The notes: generated by a model not told the origin, from the letters alone. A DNA stretch of 64,000 bases from an uncultured Bacillota bacterium (GCA_937975235.1 CALJUZ010000064.1:9306-73305), one strand, 5' to 3'. Numbered from the stretch's first letter, positions 4,660 to 59,757 are shown. Numbers and translations are program-made.

Positions 4660-4872
4660 TCAGCGGCCCTGAGGCGGCCACGCCGCGCCCGGCTGCCATT
4701 CGGGCCGCAAATAGTCGGCCGGGTCGGTGGACAGCAGCCGGTGCACGCGCGCGGTGCCGTCGGGGCCGTGCTCCAGCACGAGGCGGCTCCTGCCGACGGA
4801 CATCTCGACAAAGGACGCGGGGGCGTCGTCTTCATCCATCACCACGTCCATGGGCATGACGGTCCACAGCAC
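4660..4872 (-). CDS. ylzJ: YlzJ-like protein
   Basis: 70 aa (MLWTVMP...[18 protein letters not shown]) resembling the small YlzJ family as I recall it. Immediately follows tepA, as in B. subtilis. GTG start. Confidence 0.55.
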
Positions 4873-5731
4873 CGTTGTCCCCCCTTCCGGCGCCGGCGGG
4901 CCGGCCGAAGAACGGATCCCCGGGCGCCCGCCACGGCCTCAGCGGCCCGTTATGGACCGCCTGGGCGCCGGCATGCCCGGCCGGTGCGGCCCGCCGCACG
5001 GCGATGAGCCGCTGCAAGGCGCGCAGCGCGTCGTGCAGGCCGCCCAGCTGGTCGATGAGCCCGATTTCCACCGCGTCCCGGCCGATCAACACCGTTCCCA
5101 CGTCCCGCACCAGCTCGCCCGTGCGGAACATCACCTCCCGCAGCCGCGCCTCGGTGATGCGGGAGTGTTTGACCAAGAACTGGATGACCCGGTCCTGCAT
5201 TTTGTCCAGGTACTCATACGTCTGGGGAACGCCGATGACGAGGCCGCTCAGGCGGATGGGATGAATGGTGATGGTCGCGGTGGGCGCGATGAAGCTCATG
5301 TCCGCGGCCACCGCGATGGGGGCGCCGATGGAATGGCCCCCGCCCAGGACCAGCGACACCGTCGGTTTGGAGAGGCTGCCCACCATCTCCGCGATGGCCA
5401 GCCCCGCCTCGATGTCGCCGCCCACGGTGTTCAAAATGACGAGGAGGCCCTCTATCCTCGGATCCTGCTCGACGGCCACCAGCTGCGGCAGCACGTGCTC
5501 GTACTTGGTCGTCTTGTTTTTCGAAGGGAGAAGCAGATGGCCCTCAATCTGGCCGATAATGGACAGAACGTGAATGCCCGGCGGCTGCCCGTCGGGCGGC
5601 TGCACCGCGCCCGGCAGCCGCAGAGCCTCCGGGCGGGCGGACTCCGCCGGCCCTTCGGTCTCCGGCTCGTCGCAAACCGGAATCGGGTCGTCCATGGCCC
5701 ACATCGGGAGGAGGGAGCTCTGTTCGCTCAC
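4832..5731 (-). CDS. tepA: ClpP-fold serine protease TepA
   Basis: [13 protein letters not shown]...[66 protein letters not shown] matches TepA (ClpP-like). The N-terminal start is uncertain (GTG 5731 or downstream ATGs). The 3' end overlaps ylzJ by 41 nt. Confidence 0.85.
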
Positions 5732-5846: not shown

Positions 5847-7514
5847 TTACACTTCCATGACGATGGGCAAAATGATGGGCCGCCGCTTGGTGCGCTCGTA
5901 AAGGAAACGGCTCAGCGCATCGCGCATGTTGTTTTTCAGCACGTTCCACTGCGTGATTTGACGCTCGCTCATTTCGGCCAGCGTTTCCTGCAGCCGCACG
6001 CGCGCTTCCTCCAGCAGCTCCTCCGATTCCCGAATGTAGACGAAGCCCCGGGAGACGATGTCCGGCCCCGCCACCACCGCGCCGGTGCGCTTGTCGATGG
6101 TGACGACCGCGATCAAAATGCCGTCCTGGGACAGCTGGCGCCGATCCCGCAGCACCACGTTGCCCACGTCGCCCACGCCCAGGCCGTCCACGAACACCTG
6201 CCCCGAAGGCACCCGCCCGGTGACGGCCGCGGTGCCGTCGGCCCGAAACTCCAGCACGTCGCCGATGTCCAGCAGGAACACGTTTTCCTCGGGCACGCCC
6301 ACGGACATGGCCAGCTGCGCGTGCTGCCACAGCATGCGGTATTCGCCGTGAATCGGGATAAAATATTTCGGCCGGCACAAGTTGAGCATCCACTTGAGCT
6401 CCTCCTGGGCGGCGTGGCCCGACACGTGCACGCCCTGAGCCTCACCGTGGACCACCTGCGCGCCCAGCTTGTAGAGCTGGTTGACGGTGCGGCCCACCAG
6501 CCGCTCGTTGCCCGGAATGGGATGCGCGGAGATGATGACCGTGTCGCCCGGCACGATCCGGATCTGACGGTGCTCGGAAGCGGCCATCCGCGACAGGGCC
6601 GCCATGGGCTCGCCCTGGCTGCCGGTGCTCAGCACCACCACCCGGTCCGGCGGGTAGTCGTCCACCTCCGCCACGTCAATAAGCATGCTTTCGGGGAACT
6701 TCAGATACCCCAGCTCCGAGGCGATGCGCACCACGTTGACCATGCTGCGGCCCACGACGCACACTTTCCGCCGCACCGCCGCCGCGGCGTCAAACACTTG
6801 CTGGATGCGGTGCACGTTGGAAGCGAACGTGGCCACCACGATGCGGCCTTTCGCGTTGCGGAAAATGTCCGAGAACCCTTCGCCCACGATGCGCTCCGAC
6901 GGCGTGTAGCCGGGCTTCTCCGCGTTGGTCGAGTCGGAGAACAACGCCAGCACGCCCCGCGCGCCCAGCTGCCCCAGCCGCTGCACGTCGGTGGGCCGCC
7001 CGTCGATGGGCGTGTGGTCGAACTTGAAGTCCGTGGCGAAAACGATGACGCCCGCGGACGTGTCCACCGCCAGCGCGACGACGCCGGGGATGCTGTGATT
7101 GACGTGGATGAGCTCGATGCGCAGCTTGCCGGCCCGGATCCGGTCCCCGGCCCGCACCTCCTTCATCTCCACGCCGTTGATCTCGTGCTCCTGCAGCCGG
7201 GCCCGCACCAGGCCCAGCGTCATGCGGGTGCCGTACACCGGCACGGGCACTTCTTTGAGCAAATACGGCAGGGCGCCGATGTGGTCTTCGTGGCCGTGGG
7301 TGAGCAGCACGGCCCGCACCTTGTCCTTGTTCTCTTTCAAATACGAAATGTCGGGAATGACCAGGTCGACGCCCAGCAAATCTTCCTCGGGAAACATAAC
7401 GCCCGCGTCGACGACGACGATGTCGTCGGGCGTCTCGATGAGCCACATATTTTTTCCGACTTCGCCCAGGCCGCCCAAAGGGATGACGGCGACGGCGTTT
7501 TCCGATACAGGCAT
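5847..7514 (-). CDS. rnj: ribonuclease J
   Basis: 555 aa with beta-lactamase/beta-CASP signature (VIPLGGLGEVGKNM...LLTHGHEDHIGALPYLL...HVSGHA). Confidence 0.95.
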   Translation of the reverse strand: MPVSENAVAVIPLGGLGEVGKNMWLIETPDDIVVVDAGVMFPEEDLLGVDLVIPDISYLKENKDKVRAVLLTHGHEDHIGALPYLLKEVPVPVYGTRMTLGLVRARLQEHEINGVEMKEVRAGDRIRAGKLRIELIHVNHSIPGVVALAVDTSAGVIVFATDFKFDHTPIDGRPTDVQRLGQLGARGVLALFSDSTNAEKPGYTPSERIVGEGFSDIFRNAKGRIVVATFASNVHRIQQVFDAAAAVRRKVCVVGRSMVNVVRIASELGYLKFPESMLIDVAEVDDYPPDRVVVLSTGSQGEPMAALSRMAASEHRQIRIVPGDTVIISAHPIPGNERLVGRTVNQLYKLGAQVVHGEAQGVHVSGHAAQEELKWMLNLCRPKYFIPIHGEYRMLWQHAQLAMSVGVPEENVFLLDIGDVLEFRADGTAAVTGRVPSGQVFVDGLGVGDVGNVVLRDRRQLSQDGILIAVVTIDKRTGAVVAGPDIVSRGFVYIRESEELLEEARVRLQETLAEMSERQITQWNVLKNNMRDALSRFLYERTKRRPIILPIVMEV

Positions 7515-10776: not shown

Positions 10777-11415
10777 TTACCGCACGGGCCGCAGATTTCG
10801 CTGGATCAGCATGGGCTGGAGCTGCCGTCCCTCCAGCGCCGCGGCCACCGTATCCACGATGAGGCGAAACTCCGCGACGCACGAGGTCGGCTTCTCGTCC
10901 GGGTTGTCCTGGCCGAAGGGCACGAAATAAATGTGCTTTCGCATCAAGAGCAAGGCCAGGTTCATCGCGTTGCCGCCCAAAATGTCGTTGCTGGACACGG
11001 CGACCACGACGGGCCGCTGGTTGCGCAGCGTCCCTTTGGCCGCCATCAGCACGGGCCCGTCCGTAAACGCGTTGGCCAGCCGGGCCAGCGTGTTGCCCGT
11101 GCACGGCGCGATGACGAACGCGTCAAACGTCTTTTTCTGGCCCGTCGGCTCCGCGTCCACGATGGAGTCGATGGGCTCATGTCCCGTCAGCTCCGTCAGC
11201 CGCTCCCGCAGCGTCCGGGCCGCGGTGAAGCGGGTGTCGGTGGTGCGCACCGTTTCCGATACGACCGGCACCACCGCGGCTCCTTCGTCGCGCAGGCGCG
11301 CAATTTCCGGCAGCACTTCATCGTAGCTGCAATGGCTTCCCGAAATGCCGATTCCGATGGTTTTGCCGCGCAGCCGCACGGTGCATCGCCCCGATCCCTC
11401 TGCGGTTTCGTACAC
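10777..11415 (-). CDS. dpaB: dipicolinate synthase subunit B (flavoprotein)
   Basis: GKTIGIGISGSHCSY...VIAPCTGNTLARLANAFTDGPVLMAAKGTLRNQRPVVVAVSSND. The start may be the internal GTG at 11379 (MRLRGKTIG...), which fits the B. subtilis SpoVFB N terminus better. Confidence 0.9.
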   Translation of the reverse strand: MYETAEGSGRCTVRLRGKTIGIGISGSHCSYDEVLPEIARLRDEGAAVVPVVSETVRTTDTRFTAARTLRERLTELTGHEPIDSIVDAEPTGQKKTFDAFVIAPCTGNTLARLANAFTDGPVLMAAKGTLRNQRPVVVAVSSNDILGGNAMNLALLLMRKHIYFVPFGQDNPDEKPTSCVAEFRLIVDTVAAALEGRQLQPMLIQRNLRPVR

Positions 11416-11427
11416 GGGACGGGGACG

Positions 11428-12318
11428 TCAAAGCCGCTCCAGCTCGGCCCGGATCAGGGCGGGCAAATACGCCGCCAGAATCCGGCCCGCGGTGACCGGC
11501 GCCGTCTTTCCCGGGAGGCCCCGGGCCAGCATCGCCGTGCGGCCCAGCCGGCGGGCCGCCTCGAAGTTGGTGCCGCCCGGCGGGGACGCGATGTCGACGA
11601 TGAGCACGTCCTCGCGCGTCGCCGCCAGCACCGCGGCCGTCAGCACCACCGCCGGCACCGTGTTGAAGATGACGTGCCGGTCCGCCACGGCCTCGGCCAG
11701 CTTCGACCACGGCCAGGGCGTCAGGCCCATCGCGGCGATTCTCGCCCGGTCCGCCGCGCGGCGGGCGACGACGCCCACGTCCGCGCCCATGGCGTCCAGC
11801 AAACGGGCCAGCGTGGTGCCGCAGCGCCCGAAGCCCAAAACCAGGGCTTTGGACCCGTGGATGGTGACGGGCAGCCTTTCCATCGCGAGCCGGACCGCGC
11901 CCTCGGCCGTGGGCACCGAGTTGGCGACGGCGATCTCGTCCACCGACGCCAGCTCCACCACCCGCACGCCGCGGGCCGCCGCCGCGGCGGCCAAGGCCGG
12001 TGGCAGCGCGCCGATGAAGAGCGGCCGTTTGGGCCCGATGGCCGACAGCAGGCGCCCGTCCAGCCGAATCCGCGTGTCCGGATCCAGCGGCGTCGGCAGC
12101 CGGCCTTGCCCGTCGGCGCCGCTCATGGGCGCGATGACCGCCCGCGCCATTTCCACCGCGGCCGCCGGGTCCGACAGCCGCTCGGCCGGCACGCCGTCCG
12201 TCGGCAATCCTACCACGCGCAGGCGGGCGCCACCTGCCGCCAGGGCGCGCATGAGCTCCACTTCGCGCTGGTCGCCGCCCAGCAGCGCCAAGGGACATCC
12301 GTCCAGCAGGGAAGCCAC
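11428..12318 (-). CDS. dpaA: dipicolinate synthase subunit A
   Basis: 296 aa NAD-binding dehydrogenase-like protein immediately upstream of dpaB (VLGFGRCGTTLARLLDAMGADVGVVARR). GTG start. Confidence 0.9.
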   Translation of the reverse strand: MASLLDGCPLALLGGDQREVELMRALAAGGARLRVVGLPTDGVPAERLSDPAAAVEMARAVIAPMSGADGQGRLPTPLDPDTRIRLDGRLLSAIGPKRPLFIGALPPALAAAAAARGVRVVELASVDEIAVANSVPTAEGAVRLAMERLPVTIHGSKALVLGFGRCGTTLARLLDAMGADVGVVARRAADRARIAAMGLTPWPWSKLAEAVADRHVIFNTVPAVVLTAAVLAATREDVLIVDIASPPGGTNFEAARRLGRTAMLARGLPGKTAPVTAGRILAAYLPALIRAELERL

Positions 12319-14337: not shown

Positions 14338-15741
14338 CTAGAAGACGACGCGCACGCCCGCGGCCCAACCCGGAGGCCGGTTCCAGCCCACGTCCAGGCG
14401 GCCCTGATCCGGCTCCATCCACTGCAGCCACACCTGACCGAAACCGGGCACGTCGCGGGTGATCGACGCGTGGAACCAGCTGACGACGCCGCGATCCGAG
14501 TACGTGCGCTGCTTGACCACCAAGGCCGCGCTCCACGGGGCGTCGGGCGTCCACCGCCACTCCAGGCGCCAGCCGGGCAGCCGATCGTCCGCGGACAGCC
14601 GCACCCGCCACGCGCCGTCGTCCCACGTCATGGACGCGCGCCGCCTGGGCACGCCGCCGGCCGGGACGGTCAGCGAAAGGGATTGCTCGAAGCGGCGGTC
14701 CGGATTCGTCAAGGTGAACGTGACGCCGTGCTCGGCAGCCGCGCCGTCCACCCAGGCCGTCTCCGCATCCACCCGCCAGCCCCAGCGGCCCCAGGACATG
14801 GAGGAAAATCCGGCCTCCAGCACCGCGTAGTCCGGGGCGTTCACGGGCAGCCGGCGCTGGGCGTAGACGCTCAGCAAGCGGCCGGTGGCCGGCCGCCACT
14901 GCCAGCGGCCTTCCGCCGCCGCGGCGCCCCGGCGAAACGGGTAGTCTGACGCGGCCAGCGACCGGAAGCCCGGCGACGTGTCGTGCAGCAGCAGCCAGAC
15001 GCGGTGACGGCCGAAGGACGTCTCCGTCCGCACGAAGGCGGCCCGCTCGCTGACCTGGCTGAAGCCGGACGCCCCCGAAACTTCGACGCCCGTCTGCCGG
15101 GCCGCTCCCCAGCGCCACCGCCACCGGCCCGCGGACCACTCGCCGTCCAAGGCGACGAACTCATGCCTCAGGCGGCTCGTTCCGTACGCCAGGGCCGTCA
15201 GCCGCACGGCGGGCTCGAAGGGAGCCTGAACCTGTCCGTACAGCAGCGGTCCGCTCGCACCCCGCAGCGGCACCGCGCTGACGTACTGAACCACGGCCGG
15301 AACGGGACCGTCCCAGCCCGCGGCCACCGCGGCCGAAGTCGGAGCGTGCACCGACCCGTGGACGAGCCGGAACGGGTCGTCCGACGAGCGGTGCCTTTCA
15401 TGAAGGTACACGTTCAGTGAGAAGGAAGCGCGCGTCAGCGACACCACCGCGCCCCAGGAGGACGGCCCGCCTTGGGGCAGCGTGTGCCGCAGCGAGACCG
15501 AACCGGCGCCCGGCACGCCGTGCGCTTCGGAAAGGTCTGCAGAATGTCCGCCCGCGGACGGGGCGGTTTTCTCTAGAAAGAGGAAAAGCGGCAAATGCAG
15601 CCGCTGCTCGACGGCGGCGGCCCAATCGTCCGTCCGGACGGACACGCTGGCTTCATACTCCGCCTGCTGCGCGAGGGCCGCCGACGCCCACGCCGCGACG
15701 ATGACCAGCGGGCCGACGACGCCCGCGAGAAACCGGCGCAC
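14338..15741 (-). CDS. secreted hypothetical protein with beta-barrel-like C terminus
   Basis: Start set at GTG 15741, 6 nt after GGAGAGGTG, giving the signal peptide MRRFLAGVVGPLVIVAAWASAALA|QQ. The mature part is Trp/Arg/Ser-rich with alternating hydrophobicity and ends ...GWAAGVRVVF. I recognise no family. Confidence 0.7.
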   Translation of the reverse strand: MRRFLAGVVGPLVIVAAWASAALAQQAEYEASVSVRTDDWAAAVEQRLHLPLFLFLEKTAPSAGGHSADLSEAHGVPGAGSVSLRHTLPQGGPSSWGAVVSLTRASFSLNVYLHERHRSSDDPFRLVHGSVHAPTSAAVAAGWDGPVPAVVQYVSAVPLRGASGPLLYGQVQAPFEPAVRLTALAYGTSRLRHEFVALDGEWSAGRWRWRWGAARQTGVEVSGASGFSQVSERAAFVRTETSFGRHRVWLLLHDTSPGFRSLAASDYPFRRGAAAAEGRWQWRPATGRLLSVYAQRRLPVNAPDYAVLEAGFSSMSWGRWGWRVDAETAWVDGAAAEHGVTFTLTNPDRRFEQSLSLTVPAGGVPRRRASMTWDDGAWRVRLSADDRLPGWRLEWRWTPDAPWSAALVVKQRTYSDRGVVSWFHASITRDVPGFGQVWLQWMEPDQGRLDVGWNRPPGWAAGVRVVF

Positions 15742-15813
15742 ACCCGTCACCTCTCCGGCCCAGGGGACGGTCGGCACGTGTGTCCACCATGCTAGCAAGG
15801 ACGCCGCCGCGTG

Positions 15814-17789: not shown

Positions 17790-19115
17790 ATGTCGGCTCA
17801 AACGTTGCTGCTGATCCTTCTGACCGTCATCATCGGCTTCGGCTCGGCGCTGGCCCCGGGCGGCCCGCCGCCGGGCCCGGCCCCGGGCGCCGGGGAACAT
17901 GCACCGGCCCCGGTCGGGCCCCGGGCCGTCCTGGCCGTGGTCACCGGCGACGCGGCGCCGCTGTACGCCGCGGCCGACGCCGGCCACGCCGCGGGGCAAC
18001 TGGCGAAGGAAGATCCCCTCATTGTCCTTGAGGACGCGGGCTCCCGCCTTCGGGTCCGCACGGCGGACGGCCGCGAAGGCTACGTGCCGCGCCCGCTGGT
18101 GCGTCTTCTGACCGCGCCGCCCGTGCCTGAAAACTTCCGGGTGCTGGGCTACTACATGAACGATCCGGACGGGGCGTCCCGGCGGTCCCTGGAACAGAAC
18201 AAGGACACGCTGACGGACGTGGCGCCCTGGACCTGGGGCGTCACGGCCCGGGGCGAGCTGGTGACGGTTTATTTCGACGAGCGGCGGCTGGGCGAGCTGC
18301 TTTCCTGGGCGGGACGCAACGGGCTGAAGACCCAGGCGCTGGTGCACAACTTCAATCCGGCCAAAGGGGCCTTCGACCCCGAACTGGCCGACGCGCTGCT
18401 GTCGAACGCCGCCGCGCGGCGCGCGGCGGTGCAAAATATCGTCGACACGGCGGCGCGCTGGGGACTGAGCGGCGTTCACGTCGACTTCGAAGGCGTGCCC
18501 GCGGCGCGCCGGGACGACTTGACGTCGTTCATGGCCGAGCTGGCCCGCCGCGCGCACGAGCACGGACTGGAAGTCAGCATGGCGGTGCCGGCCAAGACCG
18601 CGGCCGCCGCGTCGGCCCTTTGGTCGGCGGCGTACGACTACCGCGCGTTGGCCGAATACGTGGACTTTCTCATGATCATGGCGTACGATCAGCACTGGCG
18701 GGGCGGCGCGCCGGGACCCGTCGCGGCCCTGCCGTGGGTGCGCGACGTCATCGAGTACGCGCTGGACCCCGAAGGCGGCGCCGTGCCGCCTGACAAGCTG
18801 TTGCTAGGCGTGCCCGTGTACGGCTACGACTGGCCCGCGGGCGGCGGGTGGGCCGACGCGGTCACCTACGCGCAAACCATGGCCCGTCTCGGGGCGCTGC
18901 AGGCGCACGGCGCCGGGGTCACCGTCCGCTGGCATCCCGGCCACCGTTCTCCGTTTTTCACCTACTCCGGACGGACCGTGTGGTATGAAAACGCCCACAG
19001 CGCCGCCTATAAACTGCTGCTGGCCGCCGAATACGGCCTGGGCGGCGTCGCCTTCTGGCGCCTGGGGCAAGAGGATCCGCACCTTTGGGACGTCCTGCGC
19101 CGCGCCGTGCGCTGA
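17790..19115 (+). CDS. glycoside hydrolase family 18, spore peptidoglycan hydrolase-like (YdhD/YaaH type) with N-terminal SH3-like domain
   Basis: Only plus-strand gene. ATG preceded by GGAGGA. Has a signal/TM segment, an SH3-like segment (LRVRTADGREGYVP), and a GH18 core with GVHVDFEGV (DxxDxE-type) and MAYDQHW. Confidence 0.85.
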   Translation: MSAQTLLLILLTVIIGFGSALAPGGPPPGPAPGAGEHAPAPVGPRAVLAVVTGDAAPLYAAADAGHAAGQLAKEDPLIVLEDAGSRLRVRTADGREGYVPRPLVRLLTAPPVPENFRVLGYYMNDPDGASRRSLEQNKDTLTDVAPWTWGVTARGELVTVYFDERRLGELLSWAGRNGLKTQALVHNFNPAKGAFDPELADALLSNAAARRAAVQNIVDTAARWGLSGVHVDFEGVPAARRDDLTSFMAELARRAHEHGLEVSMAVPAKTAAAASALWSAAYDYRALAEYVDFLMIMAYDQHWRGGAPGPVAALPWVRDVIEYALDPEGGAVPPDKLLLGVPVYGYDWPAGGGWADAVTYAQTMARLGALQAHGAGVTVRWHPGHRSPFFTYSGRTVWYENAHSAAYKLLLAAEYGLGGVAFWRLGQEDPHLWDVLRRAVR

Positions 19116-24390: not shown

Positions 24391-25509
24391 CTACAGTCCC
24401 GCCAGAAGGCGCAGATGCAGCCACGCCAGCTTCAGCCACTGTTTCAGCGTGCCGCCCAGGGCCACCACGATGCCCGCCGGCACCAGGGCCGCCAGCGCGA
24501 TTTGCACGGGCTGCGACGGCCGCGGGCGGGCGCGGTACAGCCGGCTGACGCCCCGGGCGTCCACCAGCCGGGTGCCGATTTTCAGGCGCACGAGAAAGGT
24601 GGAACCCATGCCCGGACGGCCTTTTTCCAGAAAATCGACCAGATTGGAATGGGAACCGACGGCGACAATCAGGTCCGCGCCCGCTTCGTACGCGATGAGC
24701 ATGGCCAGGTCCTCGCTGGTGCCCGGCGCCCGCACCACCGACGCGGCCACGCCGGCCGCCTCGGTGCGCAGCAGTCCCGGCGCGCGGCCGTCGGGGTAGC
24801 CGTGCACGATGACGTCCGCGGCCGCCCGCAGCGCCGCATCCGACACGCTGTCCATATCGCCCACCACCACGTGGGGCCGCAGCCCCGCCTCCAGGAGGGC
24901 GTCGGCCCCGCCGTCGACGCCGATGAGCACCGGCTGCACGTCGTCGATATACGCCCGGAGGGCCGCGAGGTCGGCGCGATAGTTGTGGCCCCGCACCACC
25001 ACCAGGGCGTGCCTTCCCCGGACAGGCGTTTTCATCGGCGGCAGAGGCAGCGGATCGATGACCAGGCGCTTCTCGCGGCGGGCGTGCTCCAGCGTGTTCT
25101 CGATAAACCGCTCGGCCTGGGCCGGCAAGTTGCGCCGGGCCGCCTCCAGCCGGCGGGCCACCGCGTCCTCGGTTAGCCACACGCCGGTCGCGACCGGCGC
25201 ACCGCCGGCATAAATCCGCCCTCGGCGGTCAATGGCCACTTCCTGGCCGTCGGCCAGCAGGCGCCGCAGCGCGCCGGGCCCGTCCAGCAGCGGGATGCCG
25301 GCCGCCAGCAGCAGCGACGGTCCCATGTTCGGATACCGCCCGGTAATGGACGACGACGTGTTGATGACCGCCCGCACGCGCGCCCGCCGCAGGCCGTCCG
25401 CGGCCACTTCGTCCAGGTCCGGATGGTCGATGAGCGCGATCTCGCCCGGACGCAGGCGGCTCACCAGCGCCTTCGTGCGATGACCAAGCCGCACCGTTCC
25501 GCGAATCAC
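24391..25509 (-). CDS. steA: putative cytokinetic ring protein SteA
   Basis: 372 aa. N-terminal RLGHRTKALVSRLRPGEIALIDHPDLD, a thiamine-pyrophosphokinase-like core (VVGDMDS) and a C-terminal TM helix. Starts 24 nt after the spo0A stop. Confidence 0.8.
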   Translation of the reverse strand: MIRGTVRLGHRTKALVSRLRPGEIALIDHPDLDEVAADGLRRARVRAVINTSSSITGRYPNMGPSLLLAAGIPLLDGPGALRRLLADGQEVAIDRRGRIYAGGAPVATGVWLTEDAVARRLEAARRNLPAQAERFIENTLEHARREKRLVIDPLPLPPMKTPVRGRHALVVVRGHNYRADLAALRAYIDDVQPVLIGVDGGADALLEAGLRPHVVVGDMDSVSDAALRAAADVIVHGYPDGRAPGLLRTEAAGVAASVVRAPGTSEDLAMLIAYEAGADLIVAVGSHSNLVDFLEKGRPGMGSTFLVRLKIGTRLVDARGVSRLYRARPRPSQPVQIALAALVPAGIVVALGGTLKQWLKLAWLHLRLLAGL

Positions 25510-25533: not shown

Positions 25534-26289
25534 CTAGCTGACGCGCATCTCGATGCACACCTGATCGGCCAGGCGGCCGATGAAGGAGGAATTGGACGGC
25601 TTGCCTTTGCCCGAGTCCACCAGGTAGCCGAACACCCGCTGAATCTCCTCCAGATTCCCTCGGGTCATGGTCACCTCGACGGCATTGCGGATGGCCCGCT
25701 CCACCCGCTCGGGCGACGTGTTGTGCCGGCGGGCGATGGAGGGATACAAGTCTTTCGTCACCGTGTGCAGCAGCGTCCGGTCGTAGACCACCATCAGCAC
25801 CGCGTCCAGCAGGTACTGATACCCTTTGAAATGGCCAGGCACGCCCAGCCGGTTCAGCCGCTCCGCCACCACCCGCAGCACTTCCCGGCGGCGCGCCTCC
25901 TCGCCGGCGGCCAGCAGGGCCGGCCCGGAGCCGGCAAACTGGCGCATGCGCCGCAGCAGCGTCGCGATGTCGAAAGGCTTGATTATGCAATAATGCGCGC
26001 CGAGGGACACGGCGCGCGCCAGCTCGCTTTCGTCCGACGCGTAGGCCGTGACGAAGATTTTCGGGCGCGGCGGCTCGCTGCACAGGCGCTGCAGCAGCTC
26101 GAAACCGTCCACGCCGGGCGGCTCCAGCTCCATGAGCACCAGCTGGGCGCCGCTGCGGCGGACCTTGGGAACGGCCTCGCGGCCGTCGTGCAGCACGGCC
26201 ACTATGTCGATGTCGCCCGCGAGGCGCGCCTCCTCGCTGACTCGCTCGCAAAATGTGCGATCAGAATCAATCATGAGGACTCGAATCAT
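25534..26289 (-). CDS. spo0A: sporulation master regulator Spo0A (atypical receiver: Glu at the acceptor position)
   Basis: Receiver domain plus the diagnostic Spo0A C-domain (GVPGHFKGYQYLLDAVLMVVYDRTLLHTVTKDLYPSIARRHNTSPERVERAIRNAVE...KPSNSSFIGRLAD). Gapless alignment to the B. subtilis receiver puts E54 (GAG, 26128..26130) at D56 and S9 at D11. Confidence 0.95.
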   Translation of the reverse strand: MIRVLMIDSDRTFCERVSEEARLAGDIDIVAVLHDGREAVPKVRRSGAQLVLMELEPPGVDGFELLQRLCSEPPRPKIFVTAYASDESELARAVSLGAHYCIIKPFDIATLLRRMRQFAGSGPALLAAGEEARRREVLRVVAERLNRLGVPGHFKGYQYLLDAVLMVVYDRTLLHTVTKDLYPSIARRHNTSPERVERAIRNAVEVTMTRGNLEEIQRVFGYLVDSGKGKPSNSSFIGRLADQVCIEMRVS

Positions 26290-26303
26290 AGTGCTTCCAT
26301 ATT

Positions 26304-27653
26304 TCAGCGAAGGAGTTTTGTTTCCTCCCTAATTTCGGAATTCATCGAGAAAATTTCCGCCTCGTAAGCCATCCACTCGGCCAGGATGCCGTAGCCGCGC
26401 CGGGGGTCGTTGACGAAGACGTGGGTGACCGCGCCCACCAGCTTGCCGTCCTGCAGAATGGGGCTGCCGCTCATGCCCTGGACGATGCCGCGCGTCGCCT
26501 CCAAAAGCCTCGGGTCGGCAATCTCGATGACGAGCCCGCGGCCGTCGGCCCGCCGGTTGGGATGCACCTGGAGAATGCGCACGGCAAAGGACTCCACCCG
26601 CTGCCCTTCGATGACGGTCAGCATTTCCGCGTCGCCGGGCCGGACCTCGTGGGCCAGCGCCACCGGCACCGGGCCGGTCACGTAGCCGTGGCGAGGCGGC
26701 TCGAACAGCACGCCGTAGATGCCGTAGCGGGTGTTTTTTTCGATGACGCCCATCTCACCCCGCCGGCCGTCGAACACGCCGATCTTCTCCCCCGGAAAAC
26801 CGCGGGCGCCTTGCTGCACCCCGCGGATAACGGCTTCGACGATGCGCCCGTCGTGCACCTGGACAGGCCTGTTGGACCCGTCGGTGATCATGTGGCCCAG
26901 GCCGCCGAAGCGCAGCGCCTCGGGGTCGTAGAAGGTCAGCGTGCCTACGCCCGCCGCGGGATTTTCCAGCCGCAGCCCCAGCCGGTACTCCACCCGCACC
27001 GCCTCGCCGTCCCGGACGGCCACGGCCGCGGGATGCACCACCCGGCGCAGGCGCGCGCCGTCGCGCACGACGGTGACGGGCACGGGCTCGCCGCGCCGGC
27101 CGAAGCGGTCGACGATTTCATGCACCTGGTCGACGCTGCGCACGGTGACGCCGGCCATCTCCACGATCATGTCGCCCGCGGCCAGGCCCGCGTCCCGCGC
27201 CGGCTGCCGCACGACCCCGTCCACGTCCACCACGCGCGTCGTCTGCGACACCACCAGCCCGTGGGAGCTGATCAGCACGCCGATGGCCTGTCCGCCCGGC
27301 ACCACCGACAGCGCCGGCACGACGCTCACCTGCACGCTGCGCAGGGGCAGCAGGCCGAAAAGGCGCAGCTGCAGGCGGGCGCTGCCCAGCTCCTCGCCCC
27401 GCACCCGCAGGCCGCCGCCGGCGGCTTCCACCAGTAGACGGCTGGCCGACACGTCCACCGCCGTGAGCCAGCGGCCCAGGTCCGTGCCCCACTCCTGGCC
27501 GGGCAGAAGCCGCACCTGCGCCGGCAGGCTCAGCGCGGCCCGCACCTGCGAGCCCACGGAAAACACCATCAAGAAGACCAGCATGAACGACAGCCGGCGC
27601 ACGAAGCGCCGGTATGAACCAGCGCGCCCCACGGTCCACGCCTCCCCGGACAC
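26304..27653 (-). CDS. spoIVB: SpoIVB peptidase (S55)
   Basis: 449 aa with signal anchor, PDZ region and S55 catalytic region (GIVQGMSGSPILQDGKLVGAVTHVFVNDPRRGYG). Located upstream of spo0A as in other spore formers. Confidence 0.9.
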   Translation of the reverse strand: MSGEAWTVGRAGSYRRFVRRLSFMLVFLMVFSVGSQVRAALSLPAQVRLLPGQEWGTDLGRWLTAVDVSASRLLVEAAGGGLRVRGEELGSARLQLRLFGLLPLRSVQVSVVPALSVVPGGQAIGVLISSHGLVVSQTTRVVDVDGVVRQPARDAGLAAGDMIVEMAGVTVRSVDQVHEIVDRFGRRGEPVPVTVVRDGARLRRVVHPAAVAVRDGEAVRVEYRLGLRLENPAAGVGTLTFYDPEALRFGGLGHMITDGSNRPVQVHDGRIVEAVIRGVQQGARGFPGEKIGVFDGRRGEMGVIEKNTRYGIYGVLFEPPRHGYVTGPVPVALAHEVRPGDAEMLTVIEGQRVESFAVRILQVHPNRRADGRGLVIEIADPRLLEATRGIVQGMSGSPILQDGKLVGAVTHVFVNDPRRGYGILAEWMAYEAEIFSMNSEIREETKLLR

Positions 27654-40561: not shown

Positions 40562-41230
40562 TTACCTCCCTGACGAAACGCCGTCAACGATAGTCACCGT
40601 CTCCCGCTTCACGCCCGCAATGCGGTGGGTCAGCTCGCCGATGAGCGCGGCCGCGGCCTGGTCCAGCACCGCGTCCACCACCACGTGGGCGCCCGCAGGG
40701 CTCAGCACCGCCACCGCGTCGTACCCGTGGGCCCGGAGCAGCTGTTCGATTTCCAGCTCCCGTGCCTCCAGCTCCCACAGCGCCAGCAGTTCCTCATGGG
40801 CCTCCCGCCGCCGCGCTTCGCCGGCGGCCGGGTCCAGCGCGGCCGCCTGCAGCAGCTCCGCCTGGCGCGAGCGCAGGCGCTCCCGCTCCAGGCGCAGGTC
40901 GTCGAAAGGATGAGACCGCGGCGGCGCGGAGGCAGGGCCTTCGGCCGCGGCCGGCGGCGCCGGCGTCAAGGAGACGGCGGCCGAGTCGTCCGCCGCCGGG
41001 CCCGACGCCGCCGCCGGCACGGCCAGTACGTCCGCGTCCGCCGGGGGCGCGACGGCGTCCGTCGCGGCCGGCCCGGGCGGCGCCTCGCCCTCCGGACGCT
41101 GCTGCCACCACGCGGCCAGCGCCAGGAAACCGACGGCCAGCGCCAGCAGCACCGCTTGCCAGGCGCGCCGGGAAAAGGTGACGAAATACACCCGGCCGCC
41201 GCTGTTTTCGCCTCGCACCGCTGCGTTCAT
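40562..41230 (-). CDS. spoIIIAH: stage III sporulation protein AH
   Basis: N-terminal TM, Pro/Ala-rich linker, C-terminal region ([28 protein letters not shown]) typical of SpoIIIAH. Last gene of the spoIIIA operon. Confidence 0.8.
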
Positions 41231-41303
41231 CGTCCTCGCTCCCTTCCGTTGAACTTCCCCTGCAGCCGTCGGGGCGGGCGCCGTCCCGCCCCTTGATGCG
41301 TCT

Positions 41304-41918
41304 TCACGGCTGCCGCGGCATGACGTACACCCGGTGGGCCGGCAGCCCCAGCAGCGTCATGACCGCGCGCGTGATTTCGTAGCGCCGCCGCGCGTCCCGG
41401 GCCGCATCGGTAATGACCAGCACCCCGGAAACGACGGGGGCGTGTTCCACCAGCACCACCGGTTCCTCCCGGCGCTGCTGGTCGCTGCGCACCAGCACCG
41501 GCTGGGCCGACCGCCGCTCGTCCAGCACGACGTCCCCGGTGCCCGCCGCGCCGGGAGCACCGCCGGTGCGGCGCTCGGTGGTCACGTGCTCCGCCAGCAC
41601 TCGCCGCGGGCCCGTCTCGACGGTGACCGACACGTGCACCGGAGCCGCACCGAAAAGCTGTCCCAGAGCGGCTTCCACCTGTCGCTCCAGCGCCCGCGCG
41701 TAGTCGTCCGCGGCGCCCGCGCCGCGGGCCGCGCCCGCCGCGGGCGCGGCCGGATCCAAGTGCGTTCGCTGGCCCACGTCCCCGGTCGGCCTCGGTCCAA
41801 ACGTCAAGAGCACCACGCCTGCTGCCAGCAAAATCAGCAGGTGGCCGAGATAACGGCGCTGCCCGTCGCTCAGCCGCCAGCGCCGCGCCCATCCGCGCAG
41901 GGGCTCCCGTTCCGTCAC
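41304..41918 (-). CDS. spoIIIAG: stage III sporulation protein AG
   Basis: TM anchor plus YARALERQVEAALGQL...VHVSVTVETG...SGVLVITDAARDARRRYEITRAVMTLLGLPAHRVYV. GTGA overlap with spoIIIAF. Confidence 0.85.
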   Translation of the reverse strand: MTEREPLRGWARRWRLSDGQRRYLGHLLILLAAGVVLLTFGPRPTGDVGQRTHLDPAAPAAGAARGAGAADDYARALERQVEAALGQLFGAAPVHVSVTVETGPRRVLAEHVTTERRTGGAPGAAGTGDVVLDERRSAQPVLVRSDQQRREEPVVLVEHAPVVSGVLVITDAARDARRRYEITRAVMTLLGLPAHRVYVMPRQP

Positions 41919-42442
41919 CGCTGCATGCCTCCTTGCCCACCGTGCTCCGCGGCCCGAACCCGCACCTGTTCGGGCCGGAGGCCGAGGTAGCCGGCGATGA
42001 GCCGGACGGCTCGATCCGCGTCCACGGGCCCGTCCGCCGGCCCGACGGTCGCGTCGATGCCCTCGATGCCGCCGTCGGGCCGCCAGCGCACGTCCAGCTG
42101 CTCGGGCGCCGCGCCCAAGGCTAGCTCCACCACGCCCGCCACGTGCTCGTAGGCCCGCCGCCGGCCCTCCTCCGCCACCCGCTCCAGCGCCCGCCGGGCC
42201 AGGAGCTCGCCCTCGGCCGCCACGTTCTCCGCGCCCTGCGGGAAACCGCCGAACCAGTCCGCGTCACCCGGGTCCCAGCGCAGCAGCTGCAGCGCCGGCG
42301 CCAGCAGCGCGCCGATGACGACCAAGCCCGCCATGAAGCGGACGTAATCCCGCAGCCGGTTTTCCGGCAGGAGCATGTACGCGGCGCTGACGAAAAAGAC
42401 GACGACCACCAAATCCCGCACCCAGCCCGCCAGCCAGCCCAC
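41915..42442 (-). CDS. spoIIIAF: stage III sporulation protein AF
   Basis: WVRDLVVVVFFVSAAYMLLPENRLRDYVRFMAGLVVIGALLAP matches the SpoIIIAF N terminus. GTG start after GGAAGGAGGGA. Confidence 0.8.
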   Translation of the reverse strand: MGWLAGWVRDLVVVVFFVSAAYMLLPENRLRDYVRFMAGLVVIGALLAPALQLLRWDPGDADWFGGFPQGAENVAAEGELLARRALERVAEEGRRRAYEHVAGVVELALGAAPEQLDVRWRPDGGIEGIDATVGPADGPVDADRAVRLIAGYLGLRPEQVRVRAAEHGGQGGMQR

Positions 42443-42463
42443 GCCGCAGTCCCTCCTTCCGCG

Positions 42464-43684
42464 TCAGCGGACCAGCGCCGCCCAGTTGCCGATGCCGACG
42501 ACGACGGTAATGACCACGAAAAACATCAGCGCCGCCGCGGCCACCGCCGCCATGAGCAGCGTCAGCGTCTGGGCCATGGCGCCCAGCGCGTCCACCAGGC
42601 GGGGATCGCTGATGGGCTGCACCACGGCGGTGGCGACGCGGTAGATGATGACCAGGGCGAAGATCTTCATCAGCGGAAAAGCCAGCAGCACCAGCAGCGT
42701 CGCCATGCCGAACGCGCCGACGGCGTTCTTGATGAGCAGCGAGCCGCCCAGGACGACCTCCATCGCGTCGGCCATCATGCCGCCGATGACCGGGATGAAC
42801 GAGCCGGCCAGAAATTTGGTCGTTCTCAGCGCGATGCCGTCGGCCACCGGCGCGATGGCGCCCCGGATAACCATGACGCCCAGAAACAGCGTCAAAAACA
42901 GCCCCAGGGCCGTCGTCGCGGCCTGCCGGAGCAAATCGGCGATGCGAGAGACGGGAAACCCGGCCGCGACGCGGCCCACCACCCCGAGCACCGCCGCGAA
43001 AAACAGCAGCGGAAACACGACTTGTTCGATCAAGCTGGCCACCAGCGTCACCACCGTCAGGAGCAGCGGATGAAACAGGGCGGCGCTGGAGACCGCGCCC
43101 ACCGCGGCCAGCATGGTGGACAGCAGGGGCAGCAGCGCCAGCATAAAGGCGCTCATGTCGGCCAGGACGCCCCGCCCCACCTCCGCCGCCGCGGAGAAGC
43201 TTTGCAGCGCGACGAAGATGATGACCATGTACGCGACCAGAAATCCGAACTCCGTGGCCGCCGGCGAAAAGGAGCCGGCCGCGTTGTGCAGCAAGGCGCA
43301 CAAGACGGCCAGCACGATGAGCTGTCCCAGCAGGCGGGACTGCAGCAGCACCTCGGCCAGCAAAAACCGCGTCAGCTCCCGGAGCAGCTCCGCCGGGTGC
43401 AGCCGCAGGCCGCCTTGCGGGTCCACGATGACGTCGCGGACGCTGCGGGCAGGCAGCCGTTCCCGGACGTCGTCGTCCAGCCCCGCCAAAATCTCCTCCA
43501 GCGGCCGCAGGTCTAGGTGGCGCACTTGCTCGTCCACCGCCGCCTGCAGCGGATCCAGCGAGTCCGCCGGGCCGGCCGCGGGCATTTTCACCGGCACTGC
43601 GGCCGCGGGCCCGGGCGTCCAAAGGGCCGCCGTCACCACCAGCAGCGCTGACGCGACGACGATGCCCCTCCGCCTCCTCTGCAC
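42464..43684 (-). CDS. spoIIIAE: stage III sporulation protein AE
   Basis: 406 aa polytopic membrane protein with signal sequence, in position five of the spoIIIA operon. Confidence 0.9.
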   Translation of the reverse strand: MQRRRRGIVVASALLVVTAALWTPGPAAAVPVKMPAAGPADSLDPLQAAVDEQVRHLDLRPLEEILAGLDDDVRERLPARSVRDVIVDPQGGLRLHPAELLRELTRFLLAEVLLQSRLLGQLIVLAVLCALLHNAAGSFSPAATEFGFLVAYMVIIFVALQSFSAAAEVGRGVLADMSAFMLALLPLLSTMLAAVGAVSSAALFHPLLLTVVTLVASLIEQVVFPLLFFAAVLGVVGRVAAGFPVSRIADLLRQAATTALGLFLTLFLGVMVIRGAIAPVADGIALRTTKFLAGSFIPVIGGMMADAMEVVLGGSLLIKNAVGAFGMATLLVLLAFPLMKIFALVIIYRVATAVVQPISDPRLVDALGAMAQTLTLLMAAVAAAALMFFVVITVVVGIGNWAALVR

Positions 43685-43735
43685 CCGGCTTCGCCTCCGT
43701 TTCGCCCCGGCCGTGGCGAAGGCCCTGTCCGCCGC

Positions 43736-44125
43736 TCAGGGCAGAATGCGCAGCAACGTGTCCAAAATACCCGTCAGCACCGGCAGCGCCAGCAGCGCGA
43801 TGATGATTTTGCCCGCCAGCTCGATGACCCCGCCCAGCGCCTCCTCCTTGGCGTCGCGGCAAACCTGGGCCCCGAAGGAGGCCACGTACGCCACGCCGAT
43901 GACGCGCAGCACCGCGTCCACGTAGGCCGTATTCACCTGCGCGCGCCTCCCCAGGTCCGCGAAGGCGCTGACAATGCGTTCCAGGGAAGGCGCCAGCAGA
44001 AGCAGCACGCCCGCGACGAAGGCCGCCATCAGCTGCACGGCCACCGCGGGATACCGCTCCCGTAGCACGACCAGCACCACCGCGGTCACCACCGCGGCGC
44101 CGACGATGCGGGCCAGTTCCGGCAT
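43736..44125 (-). CDS. spoIIIAD: stage III sporulation protein AD
   Basis: From ATG 44125: MPELARIVGAAVVTAVVLVVLRE...VIGVAYVASFGAQVCRDAKEEALGGVIELAGKIIIALLALPVL. Confidence 0.9.
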   Translation of the reverse strand: MPELARIVGAAVVTAVVLVVLRERYPAVAVQLMAAFVAGVLLLLAPSLERIVSAFADLGRRAQVNTAYVDAVLRVIGVAYVASFGAQVCRDAKEEALGGVIELAGKIIIALLALPVLTGILDTLLRILP

Positions 44126-44129
44126 GGAA

Positions 44130-44327
44130 TCACCACCAGCGGAAGACCGTCTCCACGTCACGGAACAGCTGCGCGATGAGCTGAATGAGCCAGAGCAGCA
44201 CGATGACGACCCCGGCCAGGCTCAGCATCTGCGCCTGCTCCTGGCGGCCGGCCTGGGACAAGAAGATGTTCAAAATCGCGATGATGATGCCCAAACCCGC
44301 AATCTGGTAAATCATCGTGATGTCCAA
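44130..44327 (-). CDS. spoIIIAC: stage III sporulation protein AC
   Basis: 65 aa tail of the artefactual ORF 44130..46025: LDITMIYQIAGLGIIIAILNIFLSQAGRQEQAQMLSLAGVVIVLLWLIQLIAQLF. TTG 44327 lies 8 nt after GGAGGTG. Confidence 0.85.
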   Translation of the reverse strand: MDITMIYQIAGLGIIIAILNIFLSQAGRQEQAQMLSLAGVVIVLLWLIQLIAQLFRDVETVFRWW

Positions 44328-44344
44328 CGCCGGCGCACCTCCCG

Positions 44345-44863
44345 TCAGGCCAGCGCGATGACCAGCAGACCGCCGACGCACACGCCCAGCCAGCGCCACA
44401 GCCGGGCCTGCACCGCCGCCTCGGCCTCCGCCTCCTGCTGCTGACGGGCCAGGCGGGCCAGCGCCAGACGCAGGTGCCGTTCCTGGTCCGCGGCGGACGT
44501 GCGGCCGAGATACGGCGCCAAGTCCAGGAGCGCTTCCTCGTCGGCCGCGGTCAGGCACCAGCGCCGGCGCTGGGACAGCAGGGCCCGCCGCCACGCCTCC
44601 GGCGCCGGCAGCGGCCGCCGGCGTGCCAGCAGCGCCGCGGCCTCGGCGAAAAACGGCGCCACGGCCGGCGCGGTCCTTCGGCCCACCCGTTCCAGCGCCT
44701 CGGGCAGCGGCGTCGCGCCGTACACGATTTCCGTATGCAGCATGGTCAGCGCCGTCTGCAGGCCGGCCAGGATCGCGGGCCGTTGGCTGTACGAGCCGGC
44801 CACCACGAAGCCCGCAGCGCCCGCCGCGACCAGAATCAGCGCCGCGCCGAGCCAGCTCCCCAC
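44345..44863 (-). CDS. spoIIIAB: stage III sporulation protein AB
   Basis: 172 aa: ILVAAGAAGFVVAGSYSQRPAILAGLQTALTMLHTEIVYGATPLPEAL is the SpoIIIAB pattern. Confidence 0.85.
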   Translation of the reverse strand: MGSWLGAALILVAAGAAGFVVAGSYSQRPAILAGLQTALTMLHTEIVYGATPLPEALERVGRRTAPAVAPFFAEAAALLARRRPLPAPEAWRRALLSQRRRWCLTAADEEALLDLAPYLGRTSAADQERHLRLALARLARQQQEAEAEAAVQARLWRWLGVCVGGLLVIALA

Positions 44864-44944
44864 GAAGGCGCCCCCTTCCGCCCGGACGTTTGTCCACCAC
44901 GTGCCGCCGGGCCCGTGCCCGCGGGGCCGGCGCGCCGCAGCCCG

Positions 44945-45967
44945 TCAGCGTATGTGTACGGACGCGGCCGCGGGGATATGACCGCCCCCGCGTGGGGACG
45001 GCGGGGCGGTCACCGCTTTCACCGTCCCAGGCTGGTCCGGGCCGCCCAGCACGGCCAGCAGCTCGAACAGGCACGGGTTCAGGAGAGCCTGCAGCCCCGG
45101 CCGCCGCACCACGTCCTCCCAGCCGGCGCCGTGGGCGGACGCGATGACGGCAACGCCCGCGTGGGCGGCCTCGAACAGCGCGGCCGCGTCTTCGGGCCCT
45201 CCGATCTCGTCGGTGACGATAACCCGGGGCGACATGGTCCGCAGCGCCTGCATGACGCCCGCCGCCTTGGGGCAGCCGTCCACCACGTCGGTGCACGGCC
45301 CCACGTCCAGCTGGGGCACGCCCCGCACGCACGCCGCGATTTCCGACCGCTCGTCGACGACGCACACGGGCAGGCGGGCGCCCAGCCGGCGGGCGATGTC
45401 TCGGAGCACCGTGGTCTTGCCGCCCCCCGGCGGCGAGATGACCAGGGTGTGGCGGGGCCGTCCCGGGCCGCGCGCGATGTGAGGCACGATGCGCTCCGCG
45501 GCCCCCGGCACTTCGCGAGCGATGCGCAGGTTGAAGGAGCCCACGTGGCGCAAGGTGCGGGGTCGGCCGCCCTCCAGCGCCGTTTCGCCGCACAAGCCGA
45601 CGCGGTGGCCGCCCGGCAGCGTGATGTAGCCGTGCCGAAATTCCTCTTCCAGCGCGTACACCGACGAGCGGCTGATCCTCTCCAAAAACTCCCCGGCGTC
45701 GGCCGGCGCGAACGTCTCGGCCGCGTCCGGCACGGCCAGCGCCCCGCCGCGCCCGACAAACAGCTGCCCCCGGCCCCGGACGGTGACCGCCAGCGGGCGC
45801 CCGACCCGCAGCCGGATTTCCAGGAGACCGGTCAGCGCGTCTTCGGGCAGCAGCTGAAACAGAGGCTTGAGCCTTTCGGGCAGAAACGCCAGCGCGCCCG
45901 CGACGCCCCGCAGCTCCCCGCCCGCCCGCGCCTTCCCGCCCGCCTCCCGCACCGGCACCGCCGCCAT
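44945..45967 (-). CDS. spoIIIAA: stage III sporulation protein AA (ATPase)
   Basis: 340 aa with Walker A ISPPGGGKTT and VTDEIG Walker B-like segment. ATG preceded by GAGGAGG. Confidence 0.9.
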   Translation of the reverse strand: MAAVPVREAGGKARAGGELRGVAGALAFLPERLKPLFQLLPEDALTGLLEIRLRVGRPLAVTVRGRGQLFVGRGGALAVPDAAETFAPADAGEFLERISRSSVYALEEEFRHGYITLPGGHRVGLCGETALEGGRPRTLRHVGSFNLRIAREVPGAAERIVPHIARGPGRPRHTLVISPPGGGKTTVLRDIARRLGARLPVCVVDERSEIAACVRGVPQLDVGPCTDVVDGCPKAAGVMQALRTMSPRVIVTDEIGGPEDAAALFEAAHAGVAVIASAHGAGWEDVVRRPGLQALLNPCLFELLAVLGGPDQPGTVKAVTAPPSPRGGGHIPAAASVHIR

Positions 45968-58529: not shown

Positions 58530-58534
58530 GGCCG

Positions 58535-59716: not shown

Positions 59717-59757
59717 CGTGTTGGGCCACCTCCCGCGTCCGCGGCCCGGGCCTACGG

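Follow-up and report, generated by a model that had tools for sequence, protein, structure and literature searches.

Introduction

The question raised by the locus described here is whether Spo0A, the master regulator of sporulation, can still be switched by phosphorylation when glutamate stands in place of the aspartate that accepts the phosphoryl group. According to textbooks, the decision to form an endospore is taken when Spo0A is phosphorylated on Asp56 (Bacillus subtilis numbering), and work comparing Bacilli with Clostridia has centred on the identity of the kinases or relay proteins that supply the phosphate. To our knowledge, input through a His-Asp phosphorelay or through orphan kinases is regarded as universal for endospore formers. 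The spo0A gene in question lies in a stretch of 64,000 nucleotides from an uncultured Bacillota bacterium (GCA_937975235.1, CALJUZ010000064.1:9306-73305), the whole of which was analysed and is referred to as the window. An initial annotation of this DNA had recorded the glutamate and had suggested a phosphorylation-independent regulator that might be either constitutively primed or non-functional. The comparisons presented below make it likely that the gene encodes the orthologous and functional Spo0A of a Limnochordales-like lineage, the receiver of which is now an aspartate-less pseudo-receiver outside His-Asp phosphotransfer control.

Results

Glutamate at the phospho-acceptor site

The spo0A coding sequence (25534..26289, minus strand) specifies 251 amino acids and was identified as an open reading frame with matches to TIGR02875, PF00072 and PF08769. 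The protein is identical to GenBank REJ33815.1, from a metagenome-assembled genome (MAG) labelled ‘Bacillota bacterium’ (GCA_003387805.1). The aspartate-less receiver domain (REC; residues 1–120; 25930..26289, minus strand) was delimited by PF00072, which covers residues 4–115 at 57.4 bits in the Pfam profile search, by AlphaFold and by Foldseek. The Spo0A_C DNA-binding and activation domain (residues 142–243; 25561..25866, minus strand) matches PF08769 over profile positions 2–103 of 104 (117.6 bits; cutoff 25) and shows 47–48% identity with the solved domains 1fc3 and 1lq1, to which it superimposes with Foldseek TM values of 0.86–0.93. Its RVERAIR recognition segment is invariant in the MAFFT alignment, and the Spo0A-like nature of this domain, proposed earlier, is thus borne out. 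In the AlphaFold model, for which 25 sequences of the clade described below served as input alignment, the receiver adopts a (βα)5 CheY-like fold (mean pLDDT, the per-residue model confidence, 85 overall and ~90 in the receiver). Foldseek TM values of 0.87–0.9 were obtained against receiver domains, Spo0A-N and CheY included.

In pairwise HMMER alignments the window receiver segment LVLMELEPPGVDG pairs without gaps with VLVLDIIMPHLDG of the solved Spo0A receivers, namely 9phz (B. subtilis) and 1dz3/1qmp (G. stearothermophilus), of which 1qmp carries phospho-aspartate. Glu54 (codon GAG, 26128..26130, minus strand) therefore falls on the acceptor aspartate, Asp56 of B. subtilis. MAFFT alignments of 35 and ~120 sequences gave the identical register, and strand β3 of the model comprises residues 50–54, with Glu54 at the strand end that is the usual seat of the acceptor. 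The metal-binding acidic pair Asp10-Asp11 is incomplete: Asp8 (26266..26268, minus strand) pairs with Asp10 and the first acidic position is kept, and Ser9 (codon TCT, 26263..26265, minus strand) pairs with Asp11. Both placements in the initial annotation, Glu54 on Asp56 and Ser9 on Asp11, are confirmed by HMMER and MAFFT, the first of them being supported also by the modelled end of β3. The receiver as a whole does require two or three small gaps for alignment to B. subtilis Spo0A, and the statement that it aligns gap-free was incorrect.

Of the two further pocket residues described as retained, Lys104 (codon AAG, 25978..25980, minus strand) pairs with Lys108 and forms with Pro105 the conserved Lys-Pro that follows β5. 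Thr81 (codon ACG, 26047..26049, minus strand) is the probable counterpart of Thr86, the conserved Thr/Ser; it lies on Thr86 in HMMER and one column off in MAFFT, so that this assignment stands in part and is ambiguous by one residue. An additional change had escaped the initial annotation. The aromatic switch position on β5 (Phe105 in B. subtilis), where almost every canonical Spo0A has Tyr or Phe, is occupied by Cys101 (codon TGC, 25987..25989, minus strand), as seen in the alignment and in the per-position conservation.

Two trivial explanations were rejected. A misalignment concealing another aspartate in the pocket is ruled out because HMMER, MAFFT and the AlphaFold strand boundaries concur. 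The sole aspartate nearby, Asp61, is that of the ‘DG’ motif which every Spo0A conserves. A sequencing or assembly error at codon 54 is excluded by the presence of GAG in 7/7 independent loci (the window and six loci, L001–L006, from GTDB species-representative MAGs of Limnochordales) and by the recurrence of the motif in many independent assemblies. In the 90% cluster of the window protein the motif MELEPPGVDG recurs in 10 or more sequence variants, one of them recorded on 162 contigs.

A clade of Spo0A proteins without the acceptor aspartate

The acceptor loss had been viewed as confined to a single gene. In fact an entire clade shares it, and further Spo0A lineages show it as well. In a database search ~25 clusters with 49–98% identity to the window Spo0A formed a group clearly set apart from the canonical Spo0As next in the ranking, none of which exceeded 43% identity. 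A profile search widened this group to ~30 protein clusters (46–98% identity), the named members of which are all Limnochordales or ‘Bacillota’ MAGs; no cultured carrier was found among the matches of two cluster look-ups and the profile search. The group is monophyletic in a neighbour-joining tree. Its signature at the first acidic, second acidic and acceptor positions is Asp, Ser (rarely Pro, Thr or Ala) and Glu, and the comparison with orthologues in related genomes thus places the window gene, with its D-S...E pattern, among ~30 clusters of the same kind. The acceptor Asp is kept in 93/93 of the non-clade Spo0As among the top 120 matches.

The remainder of the pocket is less uniform. Position 10 is Asp or Asn across the clade; Thr81 is present in 22/25 members, with Val or Met in the other three, and the pocket lysine is Lys in 21/25 and Arg in 4/25. 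At the switch position Cys accounts for 84% of the clade, the rest having Ala or Gly, as compared with Tyr in 86% of canonical Spo0As. The acceptor site itself has changed further within the clade, to Ala (P0016), Arg (P0009), Gln (the P0010/P0285 cluster), Gly (P0324) and, in two cases, Asp (P0026 and P0325). The Gln-type cluster (P0285–P0294, one 90% cluster) is recorded on dozens of contigs and shows a CAG/GAG polymorphism: nine variants have Gln, whereas P0294 has Glu. Because the site varies to Gln, Arg, Ala and Gly, a negative charge at this position is, to judge from these proteins, not essential.

The score of the window protein against the NCBI Spo0A equivalog TIGR02875 is a marginal pass, 202.7 bits against a cutoff of 200. 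As the full-length protein clears the threshold by just 2.7 bits, automated annotation may under-call Spo0A in the Glu clade. Two near-identical copies, P0296 and P0297 (NCBI MFS8523674.1 and MFS8581209.1), with the start called at Met6 and a length of 246 aa, bear merely the NCBI label ‘Spo0A C-terminal domain-containing protein’.

Selection on the receiver and its remodelling

Among L001–L006 the ratio of non-synonymous to synonymous substitution rates (dN/dS; Nei-Gojobori) was 0.12–0.26 for the receiver and 0.04–0.10 for the DNA-binding domain, at dS values of 0.17–1.2. The identities of the two domains were also compared with each other. At a given identity of the DNA-binding domain the receivers of the Glu clade match those of canonical Spo0As (both 0.49 in the 0.7–0.8 bin) and the receiver is hence not decaying. 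Taken together, the dN/dS values and this comparison rule out a decaying pseudo-domain. The suggestion that the protein might be non-functional is contradicted by the purifying selection on both domains and the normal divergence of the receiver, as well as by the synteny and the intact sporulation genes described below.

Per-position entropy showed where the receiver has been remodelled. Conservation has been lost near the active site at positions that are near-invariant in canonical Spo0As (Asp11, Asn12, Pro50, Asp51, Ile58, Met59, Leu62, Ala87, Gly89, Gln90 and Tyr/Phe105). Conversely, Arg3, Ala21, Arg22, Gly25, Ile27, Asp28, Val30, Leu69, Glu87, Thr110 and Leu112 are invariant only in the clade. 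The set from Ala21 to Val30 corresponds to the motif EEARxAGDIDVVAV at the end of α1 and in β2, and Thr110 and Leu112 are located in α5.

Two cysteines were observed in addition, Cys14 in α1 (72% of the clade and 30% of canonical Spo0As) and the above-mentioned Cys101. RitR is an aspartate-less regulator with a thiol-based input, and by analogy an input of this type through Cys14/Cys101 is conceivable.

Acceptor loss in other Spo0A lineages

Outside the clade, the type represented by P0127 and P0270 (L013/L014, 6001..6765; 48% GC) has the signature Asp-Asp-Glu in the synteny recN-spoIVB-spo0A-steA-mctB. Its Ser, Tyr and Lys as well as the ‘IVMPKLDG’ context are canonical, the lone signature change being the acceptor Glu (LVLEIVMPKLDG). 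This type is recorded on at least 27 contigs from four sources and, by its sequence, is a natural single Asp-to-Glu intermediate state.

When representatives clustered at 50% identity were searched exhaustively with the profile of the clade, ~15 further Spo0A-like representatives outside the clade were found to be without the acceptor Asp, a share that is inflated by ranking with a Glu-containing profile. Glu occupies the site in seven (P0127, P0158, P0168, P0176, P0231, P0243 and P0255), and Ser, Asn, Gly, Tyr or Lys in the others; the acceptor-less cluster representatives include, besides those just named, P0138, P0148, P0171, P0173, P0196, P0247 and P0267, and the locus L022 (4001..4765). 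P0255 adjoins spoIVB; P0231 has similar downstream neighbours but lacks the upstream spoIVB. Acceptor loss in Spo0A-type proteins is, across the sequences compared, recurrent but rare. A 2015 survey of aspartate-less receivers (ALRs) listed in its table S6, without comment, 7 ALRs among 391 proteins of Response_reg~Spo0A_C architecture (PMC4395418). This count is the sole trace of such proteins in the literature that could be searched, where no paper describes or discusses an acceptor-less Spo0A; a large comparative study of sporulation genes treats the Limnochordia Spo0A as ordinary.

A different kind of protein was encountered in the same searches. In P0121 (439 aa), P0122 (454 aa), P0124 (394 aa), P0125 (428 aa), P0150 and P0180 the Spo0A_C part was matched in 3–4 stretches and there was no aligned receiver signature. 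These proteins appear to be tandem Spo0A_C repeats.

The spo0A locus and its upstream region

The window spo0A lies directly downstream of spoIVB (26304..27653, minus strand; TIGR02860, 375.9 bits), from which it is separated by 14 nt, and is directly followed by steA (24391..25509, minus strand; NF040608, 472 bits). The order recN-spoIVB-spo0A-steA-mctB is common to the window, L001–L006, L012 and the Gln-type loci L015 and L016. In the nearest relatives (L017–L019) the same slot holds an Asp-type Spo0A, with the signatures DDD (P0123), DQD (P0134) and DDD (P0028). Because the synteny is shared with these nearest Asp-type relatives, the window gene is, on positional grounds, the ancestral spo0A locus, a positional orthologue and not a copy inserted elsewhere.

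Upstream of spo0A, and inside the 3′ end of spoIVB, is an AGGAAAC-N14-GAAA motif of sigma-H-like geometry (26302..26326, minus strand), which is a candidate promoter. The block GG.AGGAA.C-N14-GAA..TA is invariant in 7/7 aligned loci at 37–38 nt from the spo0A ATG, the spacing in L001–L006 being identical to that in the window. In degenerate form, the motif conserved in the window (26290..26330, minus strand) and in L001–L006 is AGGAAwC-N14-GAAr. The Asp-Asp-Glu relative L013 shows a textbook AGGATAA-N14-GAAT (5950..6000), followed by a strong ribosome-binding site. In the clade, the gap between spoIVB and spo0A is 14–30 nt and a Shine-Dalgarno sequence is absent in most members, which suggests a very short or absent spo0A leader. 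It is possible that the sigma-H-like block serves as the spo0A promoter. A scan around spo0A yielded no sigma-70 promoter and no terminator, and the 0A box TGTCGAA is not significantly enriched in the window (8 observed versus 4.7 expected; 8/100 shuffles reach 8). A TGTCGAA 0A box is present at the −10 position of the canonical locus L019 (4925..5000).

Other genes of the window

The window has 70% G+C and nearly all of its genes are on the minus strand. Their order is Bacillus-like: efp, spoIIIAA-AH, accB, accC, asp23, nusB, xseA, ispA, tlyA, nadK, recN, spoIVB and spo0A. Profile matches identified the spoIIIA operon (40562..45967, minus strand; AA, AB, AD, AE, AG and AH detected) and dpaB with dpaA, encoding dipicolinate synthase (10777..12318, minus strand); ypeB is also present. 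A single uninterrupted sigK gene without an intervening element (51112..51813, minus strand; TIGR02846, 344.5 bits, cutoff 298.65) is flanked by mltG (yceG) and a HAD hydrolase gene. No histidine kinase and no Spo0F were found among the ~55 genes scanned in the window, a result that says little about the whole genome.

Several further features were observed. Among the spore-related genes (ypeB, dpaAB) are two genes left unnamed by NCBIfam, one for a ClpP-family protein of 299 aa (4832..5731, minus strand) and one for a GH18 glycosidase (17790..19115, plus strand). The latter is the only clear plus-strand gene and is syntenic in L015/L016. An open reading frame of 486 aa downstream of dut (14338..15798, minus strand) is without a Pfam or NCBIfam match, and L015/L016 (from 20583) have a gene without a Pfam match at the same relative position. 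An 817-aa open reading frame (57276..59729, minus strand) was considered as a fusion; this was ruled out, the frame being over-extended as is typical of high-GC DNA. Only its residues 438–791 correspond to MnmA, and a different frame (~58535..59755) encodes a cysteine desulfurase, a class-V aminotransferase, resulting in the usual order Rrf2-iscS-mnmA.

Discussion

Probable independence from phosphotransfer and the evidence for and against it

The protein encoded in the window is recognizable as Spo0A throughout, but its receiver lacks the acceptor aspartate, the second metal-binding acid and the switch residue, and in the clade the acceptor site drifts to Gln, Arg, Ala and Gly. It is for these reasons that we favour independence from His-Asp phosphotransfer. 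Sporulation entry in the clade is therefore probably not switched by the usual phosphorylation and would have to be gated in some other way. The initial proposal of a phosphorylation-independent master regulator holds insofar as canonical Asp phosphorylation is precluded by the sequence; its other branch, a non-functional protein, and its confinement to one gene do not. The idea of a constitutively primed phosphomimic sits poorly with the uncharged and basic residues found in relatives and with published experience on Asp-to-Glu changes (PMC4395418), and describes at best a historical first step.

Some observations weigh against this reading. P0026 and P0325 carry Asp at the acceptor site, within an otherwise degenerate pocket. 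A second canonical Spo0A, Spo0F/Spo0B or orphan kinases may exist outside the 64-kb window. The promoter assignment is a matter of consensus resemblance, and part of the block is at the same time spoIVB coding sequence. The carriers found are all uncultured, sporulation being so far unobserved in them, and the Spo0A of Limnochorda pilosa, the only cultured relative of which we know, was not identified by the cluster look-ups or the profile search.

The alternative that survives best is that the Glu type is a specialised paralogue or co-regulator, which modulates by heterodimerisation or by competition for 0A boxes while a canonical Spo0A encoded elsewhere starts sporulation. Multiple spo0A paralogues do occur in some Clostridia (preprint 10.1101/2022.02.25.481979), our comparisons cover loci and clusters so that a second spo0A may sit elsewhere in the genome, and both the bare passing of TIGR02875 and the reduced NCBI naming of some 246-aa variants point the same way. 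Against this, the gene occupies the ancestral spoIVB-spo0A-steA slot just as the Asp-type Spo0As of the nearest relatives do, and all matches named Limnochordales in two database searches belong to the Glu clade, with no Asp-type protein of the order among them. We therefore regard a paralogue as unlikely.

Less likely again is a relic, that is, a regulator in lineages that no longer sporulate, where spo0A is either kept for another role or decaying. Many non-spore-formers retain Spo0A (10.1101/2022.02.25.481979), the carriers are without exception MAGs from uncultured organisms, and the active site has clearly decayed; yet purifying selection acts on both domains without any excess divergence of the receiver, and spoIIIA, spoIVB, sigK, dpaAB and ypeB are intact within the same 64 kb. 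Moreover, L. pilosa, a described spore-former listed as such in the comparative literature, belongs to the same class. Finally, covalent control of the pocket, by phosphorylation or methylation of Glu54 or by phosphorylation of Asp8, Ser9, Asp10 or Thr81, would be in keeping with the largely conserved Asp8, Thr81 and Lys104 and has been raised among the possibilities for ALRs (PMC4395418), but is very improbable given that close relatives have Gln, Arg, Ala or Gly at site 54, which is Gln/Glu polymorphic in one 90% cluster, that position 9 varies between Ser, Pro, Thr and Ala and position 10 between Asp and Asn, and that the same review cites no bacterial signalling protein as a precedent for phosphorylated Glu.

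A possible route to an aspartate-less Spo0A

If the clade Spo0A is indeed a functional orthologue uncoupled from phosphotransfer, it may have arisen in three steps. An Asp-to-Glu change would first have given a partly active-like receiver, the state seen in P0127/P0270. The phosphorylation machinery of the pocket would then have decayed, and control of activity would finally have passed to the abundance of Spo0A, to a partner protein or a surface for dimerisation, or to both. The present receiver should no longer depend on phosphomimicry, given the further changes in the pocket and the tolerance of Gln, Arg, Ala and Gly at the acceptor position. Regulation through the amount of Spo0A is plausible and would make use of the conserved sigma-H-like motif just upstream of the gene. 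Control through a partner or through dimerisation is equally open; it would act via the newly conserved α1-β2 segment and via α5 (Thr110, Leu112).

In its widest form the proposal states that sporulation in an order-level lineage of endospore formers is initiated by a Spo0A that never becomes phosphorylated, phosphorelay or kinase input having been replaced by abundance and/or by partner binding to the remodelled receiver, and that the same replacement took place independently in other Spo0A lineages. This we offer tentatively, as a generalisation that falls just short of an even chance.

If correct, it would mean that the sporulation decision can be wired without His-Asp signalling, in a whole clade of likely spore-formers. 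The proteins would also provide a natural series for the conversion of a receiver, from the canonical DDD through a DQD or DDE intermediate to the DSE of the clade and on to DSQ, DSR and DAA as later drift. Since Spo0A proteins of the clade score at or below the equivalog threshold, genome-based predictions of sporulation and of phosphorelays can misjudge such lineages.

Comparison with known systems

The closest comparison is with the Spo0A of B. subtilis and G. stearothermophilus (TIGR02875; 1qmp, 1dz3, 1fc3, 1lq1, 9phz). Shared with these are the architecture of receiver and Spo0A_C, the closely similar DNA-binding domain with its invariant RVERAIR segment, the position directly downstream of spoIVB with a sigma-H-like motif upstream, and the (βα)5 fold with the equivalents of Asp10, Lys108 and probably Thr86. 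The window protein differs in the replacements of Asp56 by Glu, Asp11 by Ser and Phe105 by Cys. The near-invariant ‘D-I-I-M-P-H-L’ context of canonical Spo0As is lost and the receiver is only ~31% identical. The locus is distinguished by the distance of just 14 nt from spoIVB and, in most clade members, by the want of a clear Shine-Dalgarno sequence.

In combining a receiver fold with a residue other than Asp at the acceptor position, the domain resembles ALRs such as Chlamydia ChxR, which likewise has Glu at the acceptor position (PMC4395418). In the survey of this group Glu is found at the acceptor in 26%, the first acid is kept in 65%, the second acid in 29% and the Lys in 70% (PMC4395418). 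The window Spo0A conforms to the commonest ALR pattern, with Glu at the acceptor, the first acid kept, the second lost and the Lys kept. It departs from most ALRs in having lost the Tyr/Phe switch residue, which they usually retain, and, unlike isolated orphan ALRs, it carries a Spo0A_C output and is across a whole clade the positional orthologue of a master developmental regulator.

The acceptor Glu also recalls engineered Asp-to-Glu phosphomimics (NtrC D54E and others), of which P0127/P0270 are a natural equivalent. Such a change activates some regulators, but alone is insufficient to render B. subtilis Spo0A constitutive (PMC4395418, citing Green et al., 1991). The clade is set apart from the engineered proteins by many more pocket changes and by its tolerance of non-acidic residues at the site.

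In other phyla, development is driven by orphan atypical response regulators such as WhiI and BldM of Streptomyces and FruA of Myxococcus. These too are developmental master regulators whose receivers are not phosphorylated or do not need phosphorylation, but they have outputs of the NarL/FixJ type and serve unrelated developmental programmes. Spo0A and aspartate-less receivers are thus both known kinds of protein; what is new here is a Spo0A that lacks the acceptor across an entire clade.

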